Both the position numbers and the translations under genes were made by a program. From Acidobacteriota bacterium (GTDB lineage Bacteria > Acidobacteriota > UBA6911 > RPQK01 > JAJDTT01), in assembly GCA_965217775.1 (NCBI GenBank), contig CBDCJH010000002.1, forward strand, positions 2,144,001-2,208,000: 64,000 nucleotides of DNA, given 5' to 3'. The notes beneath the pieces are model-generated. The model ran no database searches. It had not been told where the DNA came from and saw only the letters and a list, made by a program, of their open reading frames with translations. Below, one piece after another: positions 11,279 to 13,376 of this stretch. Every line of letters begins with the position of its first letter. Position 1 is the stretch's first letter.

Positions 11279-11417
11279 CAGCAGCAGCAGCCGCGACCAC
11301 ACTCCGGTTCGCCAGTTCGCAGAAACAGGAAAGGCGATTTGGGAGGCGTGGCTATGCGATCCGGCGAATTCCGTATATTGGTGCGTCGTTTGTTGGTTGG
11401 GAGTGTGGCGACAAGAA

Positions 11418-13334
11418 GTCACGGTAGGAACGGCAGTTTCCTGCCGCCCCCCGCACAGATCCGGACGTGCCCGTTAAGGCATCCGGCTCCTACCTTGGGT
11501 GTGGACGGCCAGCGGAACCGCTGCCCCGGCCACGGGTGACGGATCTTCACGGATGGCCAGAGCAATTCCGTCATCCGTCGCAACCGTCCCCAGCTGAAGC
11601 GGTCGCGTTGGGACCGGCGGCGCAAGGCTCGCAGCCACCGCCGTTGCAGCAGATAGCAGAAACCTCGCAGCCAGCGCGTACTCCCCGGAACCGCAAAATA
11701 GTTCAGCCAGCCGTTCAGGACCCGGCTCAACCATTTCCCGACCTCCCAGTGATCCGCGTGCCGTTGTCTCCACAGCCTCTCCCCCACCCGTCGCAGGGTC
11801 CGGTTCATCCGTTTCGCGCTTGGCTTCCGCCCCAGCCGGAAGCGTCCCTTCCGGGTCTTCGCACAGTAGTGCGTGAACCCCAGAAAGTCGAACGTCTCCG
11901 GTTTCCGCTCCCCGCGTCGTCGCCGATCCGCTGCCGCAAATCGTCCGAACTCCACCAGTCGCGTCTTTTCCGGGTGCAGTTCCAGCCCGAACTCGGCGCA
12001 CCGTTCCCCCAGGTCTCGGAGAAACCGTTTCGCGTCCGCCCGTCTCTGGAATCCGGCCACGAAGTCGTCCGCATATCGCACCAGGATCGCTTCGCCTTTC
12101 GGGACTCGTGGGCGCCACGTCCGATGGAACCATTGGTCCAGCACGTAGTGCAGGTACACGTTGGCCATGACCGGCGAGACGTTGGCGCCCTGAGGCGTCC
12201 CTCTCCCCGTGTCCGACCAGGTCCCTTCTTCCATCACGCCGGCGTTCAGCCACTTGCGCAGCAGCCGCAGCACCCGCCGGTCTCCGATCCGCCGTTCCAC
12301 GAACTGCATCAGGCAGTCCCGGTCGATCGCATCAAAGAACGTCCGAATGTCCGCGTCCACGATCCCATTGACTTTCCGCCGTTCGATCCCGTAGGCCAGT
12401 GCATCCAGCGCGTCATGCGCCTTCCGTCCGGGCCGGAACCCGTAGCTGAGCCCGAGAAACTCCGCCTCGTAAATCGGCGCCAGGAGCTCGTCCACGACTG
12501 CCTTCTGGAGGATCTTGTCCTCCAGCGCGGCCACGCCGAGCGGTCGTGTCCTTCCATCCGGCTTGGGGATGTTCACCCGCCGGACGGGAGGCGCTCGGTA
12601 CGCGCCCCGGTGCACGCGGCGATGCAGGTCCAGCAGTCGCTCTTCCAGCTTCGCCCCGTACTCCTCCCACCGGACCCCGTCGATTCCCGGGGCAGCGTCC
12701 TTTCTCAGTCCGAGATAGGCGCGGCGCAGGGCCTCCACAGTGATATGGTGCAGCAGCGCGGTCAGTCGCTCCTTGGGGTTTCTCGCGATCGCTCGCCGTA
12801 TCCGGTCCACCGCTTGGGACACGCTCCCCCGACTCTGCGTCCGGCGCGTGCTTTGGCTCACCGAATTCCCCTTGGTTCCATCCCTTCGCTCCACCGGCTC
12901 CGCCGAGGGTCGCCCCTCTTTGTTCGCCCGCTTCATCGCTACTATGGATGAATCCGATTGCTTCGTTCCGTCCATCATGAGTTTCGGGTTACTCCTTTCT
13001 CATGCGACCCCGGGGCGACCCCCCGGGGTGAAATGAAGCCCTCCCAGGTCCCGGAACAAGATTTGCGTACGTGCCTGGGTTCTTTGACACCGCGGAGCCC
13101 GGCCGTCCCTCACCTGGGCGGTCCAGCCGGTGTTGCCTTCGACCGCGACTACAGCCTCGGCACTTCCGATCATGGAGCTTTCGATGCTCAATAGCCTGCC
13201 CATACGCACCGCTACCGACGCTTCGCCGACACCCTCACGGGTGCCAACGCACGGCTCGCGGAGAAACGTGGATGGTTAGTCCTTCGTTTCGGCGGACTTC
13301 CACCGCCTATCTTGTGCCAGTTAGCCTGGCGCAC
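11418..13334 (-). mobile_element. Group II intron (about 1917 nt; RT-maturase without En domain, class E-like)
   Basis: 5' end GTGCGCC at 13334; DV GAGCCGGATGCCTTAACGGGCACGTCCGGATC (11489-11458, AGC triad); DVI; 3' end ...CCTACCGTGAC at 11418. EBS1 and EBS2 candidates match the 5' exon. Confidence 0.92.
11419..12978 (-). CDS. ltrA: Group II intron reverse transcriptase/maturase
   Basis: RRVNIPKPDGRTRPLG, SYGFRPGR, DADIRTFFD, GTPQG, RYADD, FDFLGF and the X domain GWLNYF. Confidence 0.95.
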   Translation of the reverse strand: MMDGTKQSDSSIVAMKRANKEGRPSAEPVERRDGTKGNSVSQSTRRTQSRGSVSQAVDRIRRAIARNPKERLTALLHHITVEALRRAYLGLRKDAAPGIDGVRWEEYGAKLEERLLDLHRRVHRGAYRAPPVRRVNIPKPDGRTRPLGVAALEDKILQKAVVDELLAPIYEAEFLGLSYGFRPGRKAHDALDALAYGIERRKVNGIVDADIRTFFDAIDRDCLMQFVERRIGDRRVLRLLRKWLNAGVMEEGTWSDTGRGTPQGANVSPVMANVYLHYVLDQWFHRTWRPRVPKGEAILVRYADDFVAGFQRRADAKRFLRDLGERCAEFGLELHPEKTRLVEFGRFAAADRRRRGERKPETFDFLGFTHYCAKTRKGRFRLGRKPSAKRMNRTLRRVGERLWRQRHADHWEVGKWLSRVLNGWLNYFAVPGSTRWLRGFCYLLQRRWLRALRRRSQRDRFSWGRLRRMTELLWPSVKIRHPWPGQRFRWPSTPKVGAGCLNGHVRICAGGGRKLPFLP

Positions 13335-13376
13335 AGTCGCCGCTCCCAATCGGCGGCAAGAAAGCCGCCGCTCCCA
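13335..13376 (-). repeat. Tandem REP-like hairpins; the first is split by the intron
   Basis: Minus strand reads TGGGAGCGGCGGCTTTCTTGCCGCCGATTGGGAGCGGCGACT|intron|TTCTTGTCGCC, with the right half at 11417-11407. Confidence 0.8.

Follow-up and report, generated by a model that had tools for sequence, protein, structure and literature searches.

Group II introns spread harmlessly in several ways: they splice out of the genes they enter, hide inside other mobile elements or, in the case of class C, sit behind terminators. For bacterial introns, a review from 2015 distinguishes three target specificities, namely homing sites, terminator motifs and attC sites, and surveys describe homing into insertion sequence (IS) elements, terminators and intergenic sites with a conserved intron-binding site (IBS) (PMC3522654). 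The closest known counterparts of the element treated here are the Sinorhizobium meliloti intron RmInt1 (class D, IIB3) and further IIB introns that home into multicopy IS elements with a reverse transcriptase (RT)/maturase devoid of a DNA-binding and endonuclease (D/En) domain. In these endonuclease-less (En-minus) introns, a multicopy element is found through three exon-binding sites (EBS1, EBS2 and EBS3), and the orientation of insertions is biased in a manner tied to the replication fork (PMC4424553). Here we describe an intron that appears to work like them but whose target is an extragenic palindrome of ~23 nucleotides (nt) with hundreds of copies rather than an IS gene. It lies on the minus strand of a 64,000-nt stretch (the window) of a soil/sponge-type Acidobacteriota genome (assembly GCA_965217775.1, contig CBDCJH010000002.1, positions 2,144,001 to 2,208,000), and it is very probably a IIB-like mobile group II intron, still or recently active, whose protein combines RT and maturase without an endonuclease domain and whose natural homing site is a dispersed hairpin of the repetitive extragenic palindrome (REP) type. 

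Other elements share parts of this description. Class C (IIC) introns also lack an endonuclease domain and occupy many near-neutral intergenic sites defined by a DNA hairpin motif; they have, however, no EBS2 and a short EBS1, and they insert downstream of a stem-loop through its structure. The present intron differs in its 6-nt EBS1, in an EBS2 that covaries with its target, in matching a different Rfam model of domain I, and in inserting within the loop, such that the 5′ arm is itself IBS1. Class C identity was rejected on the guides and the position of insertion, and the contrast that an earlier, sequence-only reading of this DNA had drawn with class C agrees with the literature, in which class C introns have a short IBS1, lack EBS2 and insert at sites preceded by a hairpin. 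REP sequences are also the preferred targets of several IS elements (ISPpu9, ISPpu10, ISPsy8, ISPa11 and IS1397), which thereby spread without gene hits (PMC1525189). Those elements are DNA transposons whose transposase recognizes the target, whereas here a retroelement would do so by RNA–DNA pairing. The only group II intron in the table of the same source, from Pseudomonas putida KT2440, is REP-associated in two of nine copies (PMC1525189). Compact IIE and IIF introns such as Cl.be.I2 and Pe.th.I2 are IIB-like, without an endonuclease domain and with clear EBS1 and EBS2 in domain I (PMC3753933, PMC3552965); they measure 450–700 nt without their open reading frame (ORF), and ORF-less derivatives of the present intron 642–643 nt, a likeness of descriptions rather than of reference sequences. 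The same literature assigns So.us.I2, an intron of an acidobacterium, to class F (PMC3552965). Our literature search, in an incomplete library without most subscription journals and supplements, brought to light no group II intron with an EBS-defined REP homing site. The mechanism is canonical and the target choice new; that the guides follow species-specific repeat families within a genus is an added observation.

The window comes from a genome (G000) of two contigs, 6.43 Mb and 62% G+C, and all coordinates without a contig name are window positions. The parts of the intron and of its target are as follows.

11418..13334, minus strand: complete group II intron, 1917 nt, from 5′ GUGCG to 3′ GAC (Rfam matches, further copies, and an empty site in genome G006)
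13078..13300, minus strand: core of domain I of the ribozyme, aligned to all 225 positions of the Rfam model RF02005 (group-II-D1D4-6; 164.9 bits, E 9.6e-48)
11418..11491, minus strand: domains V and VI, into which the ORF extends (RF00029, 37.5 bits, E 3.1e-05)
11419..12978, minus strand: intron-encoded protein, 519 aa, RT plus maturase (TIGR04416, Pfam RVT_1, YADD motif)
13145..13150, minus strand: EBS1 5′-AGUCGC-3′, pairing with exon positions -6..-1 (loop in the RF02005 consensus; four variants match their own 5′ exon)
13174..13178, minus strand: EBS2 5′-GCUCC-3′, pairing with exon positions -12..-8 (RF02005 consensus; covaries in the ORF-less copy o3224157 and in genome G004)
13085, minus strand: candidate EBS3 (A), probably pairing with T at +1 of the 3′ exon (single fitting column)
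13335..13346, minus strand: 5′ half of the split repeat, with IBS2 GGAGC (13346-13342), G, and IBS1 GCGACT (13340-13335), from the flanks
11407..11417, minus strand: 3′ half of the split repeat, loop TTCTT and arm GTCGCC, the T at +1 being IBS3 (flanks and G006 site)
13352..13374, minus strand: intact neighbouring repeat GGAGCGGCGGCTTTCTTGCCGCC, an empty homing site (repeat search; G006, G003 and G002 have it at the orthologous locus too)

Read from 13334 down to 11418, the intron begins with GUGCG and ends with ...CCGUGAC (terminal bases ...CCUACCGUGAC). The RF00029 score of 37.5 lies below the gathering score of 40, although the match terminates at exactly 11418, the proposed 3′ splice site. 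The ORF is located in domain IV, and its product scores 349.3 bits against the group II intron RT/maturase model TIGR04416 (cut-off 300; residues 83-455), contains the YADD motif, and has RVT_1 (E 8.1e-34) as its sole Pfam match; the same Pfam search detected no DNA-binding or HNH endonuclease domain in it. Ribozyme domains, an RT/maturase in domain IV, EBS/IBS pairing and precise insertion thus all mark a mobile group II intron, and the absence of a D/En (HNH) domain after the maturase domain, together with the replication-linked orientation described below, marks the En-minus lineage. The ORF may belong to class E or F. The reading frame continues through domains V and VI (11419-11491, minus strand) and its TGA ends one base short of the 3′ splice site; the C-terminal 64 residues after the TIGR04416 match are encoded over these domains. 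The closest plasmid homologues, which share 52-58% identity and carry no annotation beyond ltrA, can be aligned as far as residue 519, which suggests that this overlap is conserved in the lineage. Another ORF of 345 aa (10385-11422, minus strand) overlaps the 3′ end of the intron but is probably spurious, because a plus-strand ORF at 10541-11278 shows coding periodicity and has a conserved orthologue ending in TAA.

The exons read 5′ ...TGGGAGCGGCGACT and 3′ TTCTTGTCGCC..., with ...UGGGAGCGGCGACU directly before the intron and UUCUUGUCGCC... directly after it. Joined, they form a GGCGAC / TTTCTT / GTCGCC hairpin that the intron splits between loop bases 1 and 2 (T|TTCTT), such that IBS1 consists of the 5′ arm plus the first loop base; an intact sister repeat stands 6 nt upstream. 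This is what the sequence-only reading had described, and the reading of the flanks bears it out. Both host genes flanking the locus are on the plus strand, placing the intron antisense to them in an intergenic spacer. The gene beside the site (window 13400-14400) has orthologues in five genomes of the same genus. At the orthologous locus of G006, where the flanking gene is 94% identical, there is no intron of the same type and the hairpin is uninterrupted, reading ...GGCGGCAAGAA|AGTCGCC... exactly at the insertion point; the intergenic region (...GGGAGTGCGGCGGCAAGAA|AGTCGCCGCTCCCATTCGGCGGCAAGAAAGCCGCCGCTCCCATTGGC...) contains the same two repeats, both uninterrupted. Repeats at this locus are uninterrupted in G001, G002 and G003 as well. 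These intron-less alleles fix the intron boundaries exactly, and they indicate that the repeat predates the insertion and that the ribozyme alone was added, with neither duplication nor loss.

The locus is one of many. A blastn search of G000 with the intron returned 10 full-length copies, 98.5-100% identical, along with one copy without the first 770 nt, four ORF-less copies and one 67-nt 5′ fragment. The 519-aa ORF is uninterrupted in nine of the ten full copies and frameshifted in the other. Nine of the ten likewise occupy the identical position within a GGAGnGGCGrCT|TTCyTGyCGCC hairpin, whose arms are perfect in seven and have one mismatch in two. The ORF-less derivatives are 642-755 nt long and 83-87% identical, with domains I–III joined to V–VI; three of the four adjoin halves of the same repeat, as do the 5′ fragment and, at its 3′ end, the truncated copy. 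Truncation from the 5′ side occurs in G000 (from intron position 771) and in G002 (from position 54), both of these copies abutting the 3′ half of the repeat, as expected for abortive (incomplete) cDNA synthesis; for the truncated copy in row 3647027 and for locus L038 only the 3′ flanks were used. In G002, a member of the same genus, all nine copies with a readable 5′ flank follow GGAGn, the arm and T (the tenth is the 5′-truncated one), and the hairpins at these nine are perfect in eight cases, belonging to several subtypes, and degenerate in one. G003 retains a fragment of the intron only. One ORF-less copy (C2:1903834-1904588) carries an AT-rich insert of ~112 nt with inverted ends inside a domain I stem-loop.

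The strongest evidence that pairing sets the choice of target, as far as sequences can tell, is the covariation of the guides with their exons. In the window copy, EBS1 forms 6/6 pairs with IBS1 and EBS2 5/5 pairs with IBS2, at the very coordinates (AGTCGC 13150-13145, GCTCC 13178-13174) that the earlier reading had picked out. In the RF02005 consensus, EBS1 falls in GUAGUCGC, the terminal loop closing a 4-bp stem, a hairpin where EBS1 is usually found, and EBS2 lies in a 13-nt unpaired stretch AAAGCUCCAUGAU at the usual IIB position. The main form and its natural variants compare as follows.

Main form: EBS1 AGUCGC, EBS2 GCUCC; exon GGAGn-n-GCGRCU, with GCGAUU in one copy, these exon variants being G-U wobbles
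ORF-less copy C2:3224157: EBS1 GGGUGC, EBS2 CCUAC; exon GUAGG-G-GCACCC|C, 11/11 complementary
G002 copy L040: EBS1 AGUCCC; exon GGGACU
G005 copy (91% aa identity): EBS1 AACCCC, EBS2 GCUCC; exon GGAGU-G-GGGGUU|U
Three G004 copies (89% aa identity): EBS1 GGAUGC, EBS2 CAUGC; exon GCAUG-G-GCAUCU|A

Compensatory changes of EBS1, EBS2 and IBS in these four variants give substance to the claim that EBS pairing chooses the site, which had been put forward from the window copy. A scan of the first 560 aligned columns for EBS3, with A/A/U/G required opposite +1 T/T/A/C in the main form, G005, G004 and o3224157, left exactly one column. It corresponds to intron position 250, an unpaired bulge in the RF02005 consensus, and makes the A at window position 13085 a candidate EBS3.

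The target belongs to an abundant repeat family. On contig C2 the 23-mer GGAGCGGCGACTTTCTTGTCGCC has 189 copies at ≤4 substitutions, compared with 1 in the control (reversed, not complemented, sequence), in line with the earlier proposal that the target is the conserved GGAGxGGCGACT part of a REP family. The unit of 23 nt has a 6-bp stem and a 6-nt loop, and 42 pairs of neighbours lie <60 nt apart. Only 53 of the 189 fall in predicted genes, versus 84% of random positions by a crude periodicity-based gene finder, and 53 is probably an overestimate, as this home-made program extended ORFs to the most upstream start codon. A stop-to-stop ORF test of extragenic location was discarded as uninformative, with 89% of this GC-rich genome inside such ORFs. 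Exact matches to the 18-mer GGCGRCTTTCTTGYCGCC number 109 in G000 and 15, 61, 145, 16, 0, 170, 202 and 35 in G001–G008, so that it is present in seven of the eight other genomes of the genus, all reversed-pattern controls being 0; it occurs in 0 of 22 genomes outside the genus and is thus genus-confined among the 31 genomes searched. The RT-match and 18-mer counts across genomes include G016, which has one partial RT match and no repeat match and on which no conclusion depends. Palindromic, abundant, mostly extragenic, clustered or inverted in arrangement and genus-specific, the family is REP-like. Within the window, four further empty copies were found, three of which the earlier reading had listed.

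3820..3842, plus strand: empty repeat copy, perfect hairpin, without GGAG leader (repeat search, as for the following)
3923..3945, minus strand: empty repeat copy, missing from the earlier list
15281..15303, minus strand: empty repeat copy of the GGGCGAC/TTCCA/GTCGCCC subtype
16660..16682, plus strand: empty repeat copy

Side observations extend the picture of the repeats. In G007 (C15:19534-19803 and similar places) they form tandem arrays of up to ten units with a 28-nt period, often followed ~100 nt on by an array in the opposite orientation. Y1_Tnp matches in G000 amount to three ORFs, all weak (39.2, 30.6 and 22 bits). The best of them, a 233-aa ORF of the IS200-like type, resembling REP-associated tyrosine transposases (RAYT-like; L076 1141-1842, G000:C2, ~5.635 Mb), is preceded by a related but different hairpin, GGGGGAC/ATCCCT/GTCCCCC, whose family has 63 copies at ≤2 mismatches in G000, one of them in the window at ~3801-3821. 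No Y1_Tnp ORF flanked by GGCGRC-type repeats was found within the loci fetched.

Outside G004, the sites of guide variants are again repeats. The site of ORF-less copy C2:3224157 belongs to a GGGCACC/CCTTGTG/GGTGCCC hairpin family with 104 copies at ≤2 mismatches in G000 (control 0). G005, in which the GGCGRC-type 18-mer is absent, has 316 GGGGGTTTTCCTACCCCC hairpins at ≤2 mismatches (control 0) and 292 copies of GGAGNGGGGGTTTTCCTACCCCC with a GGAG leader at ≤1 mismatch (control 0); this repeat sequence is exactly what the EBS1 and EBS2 of its intron spell, and the single intron copy of that genome sits in such a hairpin (1/1). The four EBS variants with matching sites amount to a natural experiment in target re-programming. 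We lean, on balance, towards a broader interpretation, in which the intron lineage would be a long-term lodger of the REP system of the genus, with EBS1, EBS2 and EBS3 repeatedly re-tuned to the dominant REP family (arms GGCGRC, GGGGAC, GGGGGT, GGGCACC) and with a transiently single-stranded lagging-strand template shared with the Y1 transposases presumed to spread REPs. On that view the intron would represent a fourth natural target specificity of bacterial group II introns, in addition to homing sites in genes or IS elements, terminators and attC sites, along with natural retargeting to renewable safe-harbour sites.

The copies are also biased in strand. Cumulative GC skew on C2 has its minimum at ~4.95 Mb and its maximum at ~1.65 Mb; the minus strand carries every one of the seven full copies found from 2.16 to 4.70 Mb, the plus strand every one of the three from 5.17 to 6.09 Mb. 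In 10/10 full copies, then, the sense strand has the sequence of the leading strand and is the template of lagging-strand synthesis (binomial p 0.002 vs 0.5, and 0.005 vs the empty-repeat baseline of 112/189). Five of the six other copies agree. In G002, where skew was sampled in twenty 20-kb pieces, 8/10 copies follow the rule, and the remaining two lie in transition zones that allow no assignment. By analogy, this is the pattern expected for endonuclease-less introns that take their primer from the replication fork; in RmInt1, priming at the fork involves the lagging strand.

A course of events modelled on RmInt1 and on mutants of Ll.LtrB would accommodate these observations. The excised intron RNA, together with its protein, would bind single-stranded lagging-template DNA, EBS2, EBS1 and probably EBS3 pairing with GGAGn, GCGRCU and the U/T at +1, that is, with the leader GGAG, the 5′ arm and loop bases 1 and 2 of the repeat. 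The RNA would then reverse-splice between loop bases 1 and 2. Since the protein would make no cut in the opposite strand, the cDNA would be primed from nascent lagging-strand DNA at the replication fork, and a repeat would be used only if its sense strand served as the lagging-strand template. ORF-less copies would be mobilized in trans. The repeats being mostly extragenic, insertions would be near neutral with no need for splicing out, and as repeat families diverge between species, the EBS sequences would change with them.

The question that the copy distribution raises is whether the hairpin or the base pairing directs the intron. Recognition of the repeat as a DNA hairpin, in the way class C introns use terminators or attC sites, with pairing merely fine-tuning the position, would account for the use of three repeat families (arms GGCGRC, GGGCACC and GGGGGT) with insertion always after the 5′ arm and one loop base, although this shared position is also explicable by common descent of the families, which have the GGAG leader in common. 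IBS1, however, is the 5′ arm itself, so that pairing calls for an opened hairpin; at one G000 copy and at the three G004 copies there is no hairpin, yet the IBS matches are full; and the guides, a 6-nt EBS1 with an EBS2, are unlike those of class C. Occupied and empty sites were also compared by the same criterion, ranges denoting zero or one arm mismatch allowed. For the motif GGAGNNGCGRCT, hairpins make up 6-7/8 of occupied and 92-110/168 of empty sites (Fisher p ~0.3), and with T at +1, 6-7/7 and 90-103/112 (p 1.0). Only with a motif permitting all wobbles are hairpin sites enriched among the occupied ones (6-8/9 against 184-360/712, p 0.013-0.038), an enrichment that poor pairing at sites rich in wobbles, or selection against gene insertions, would explain just as well. 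Base pairing alone accounts for the REP bias, the 13-nt rule spelling the repeat; we regard recognition of the hairpin structure as unlikely.

The link could alternatively be indirect, with insertion at any IBS-like site, purging of genic copies by selection and no specialization for the repeat. Motif-matching sites outside repeats do exist (58-76 of the 168 empty GGAGNNGCGRCT sites), a genic copy shows that such sites are usable, and the repeats are mostly extragenic. With T at +1, however, repeats account for 90-103 of the genome's 112 matching empty sites, the EBS set in effect spelling out the repeat; moreover, EBS1 AACCCC of G005 tracks the 292 GGAGNGGGGGTT|TTCCTACCCCC sites of a genome that has none of the GGCGRC type, and the ORF-less lineage changed three EBS1 and two EBS2 bases to fit another repeat family. 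An indirect link is thus very unlikely. Finally, the hairpin halves might be the terminal inverted repeats of a DNA transposon carrying the intron, for instance a REP doublet (REPIN) moved by a Y1 transposase, and the inverted flanks GGCGAC...GTCGCC, as well as the Y1_Tnp-like ORFs, one of them beside a related hairpin, point in that direction. Against this, the hairpin of the orthologous empty site is uninterrupted, with no duplicated or missing bases, and the inserted segment coincides exactly with a ribozyme that starts at GUGCG and ends with the base following domain VI. The genic copy has no 3′ arm, the flanks covary with internal EBS loops, and 5′-truncated copies fit reverse transcription and not cut-and-paste, making a passenger of this sort hardly conceivable.

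An EBS-programmed intron homing into REP-like hairpins remains our preferred reading, and the following observations weigh against it or narrow it. The tenth full copy in G000 (C2:3931636) is in a gene and has no hairpin: it follows GGAGAUGCGGCU, has an IBS2/IBS1 match GGAGA-T-GCGGCT and no 3′ arm, and interrupts an ORF in the sense direction, the frame continuing across the junction. The three G004 copies (L042-L044) have identical flanks and interrupt codon four of a phage-type integrase gene, whose product matches the N-terminal phage-integrase domains PF24624 (27.2 bits) and PF02899 (23.3 bits); this is the classic pattern of a mobile element inside a mobile element and an exception to the repeats. 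The intron is programmed for the repeat in the G000, G002 and G005 lineages but not in G004. More distant homologues (49-57% protein identity; Acidobacteriota, Bryobacterales and further metagenome-assembled genomes) all match RF02005, and their EBS1 again matches the exon (e.g., GCUCUG with CAGAGC at two sites of one genome), but no hairpin target was found among them (L005-L009, L059-L071) where both boundaries were readable; the 3′ exons of L008, L063, L064, L068 and L069 lay outside this check, the domain V pattern giving no 3′ end. REP targeting is, by the difference of G004 and these homologues, a trait of part of one genus and not of the intron family. In the fold of domain I, single-sequence RNAfold pairs 2/6 EBS1 bases (the last GC, with AGUC unpaired) and 3/5 EBS2 bases. 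More weight goes to the family consensus, which leaves both guides unpaired, since the variants do not preserve the two additional EBS1 pairs. The contribution of EBS2 is limited: IBS2 comprises four firm pairs (GGAG) and a variable -8, and one copy with IBS2 GGACA forms only 3/5 pairs. EBS2-IBS2 is also reported to be dispensable for in vitro splicing of IIE and IIF introns (PMC3753933). ORF-less copy 1903834 (plus strand), at 1.90 Mb near the terminus, is the only copy that breaks the strand rule. In the permissive orientation, 46 hairpin sites matching GGAGNNGCGRCT are still empty, and G005 has one copy for ~290 sites, so that intron activity may be low or past. Splicing and mobility themselves are deduced from sequence, the near identity of the copies, the intact ORF in nine of ten and the presence of intron sequence in contigs of RNA libraries being indirect signs. 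The two counter-checks proposed in the earlier reading did not go against it: 9/10 copies in G000 and 9/9 readable ones in G002 are at the repeat, and the consensus structure places both guides in unpaired positions.

Many neutral extragenic landing sites would offer a way of spreading without killing the host, and would link the spread of a retroelement to REP biology and to single-stranded DNA at the replication fork. A compact endonuclease-less intron with a 13-nt target rule is also a candidate multi-copy integration tool, and the REP-rich sister genomes without the intron, G006 and G007, are on paper open to invasion.

Sequencing data and single loci yielded further observations. All of the sequencing runs consist of assembled contigs; in X1 and X5 the summed depth of the intron exceeds that of its flanks several-fold, which is not a measure of copy number, and both contain a deletion form skipping 11495-12918. 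An X1 contig that joins 11417 to 13335, skipping 1917 nt, was left unused, its shorter side being 21 letters long and within the repeat; it may derive from another repeat copy and is evidence neither of an empty allele nor of splicing. Contigs from the RNA libraries X9 and X17 cover the intron, which is not proof of transcription or splicing, as DNA carry-over is possible. Intron-like sequence is present in runs X9, X11-X13 and X20, several of them labelled sponge metagenome or metatranscriptome, and X9 has 40 intron contigs at ≥93% identity.

Among the distant homologues, L006 (in G049) and L069 start with GAAAGCG instead of GUGCG, directly after a 6/6 IBS1 match, and may have a non-canonical or mutated 5′ splice site; many copies of the GAAAGCG-start form are present in G049. 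At L008 (G045:C13:1-4217) two introns in head-to-tail order directly abut, without an intervening exon (...CCGCGAC|GTGCGCC), their RF02005 matches being 2009 nt apart, and the “5′ exon” of the second copy mismatches its EBS1. Elsewhere in the window there are three tRNA genes on the minus strand, at 23730-23802, 26980-27066 and 34252-34344 (75.6, 58.7 and 51.9 bits), two of which have long variable arms.

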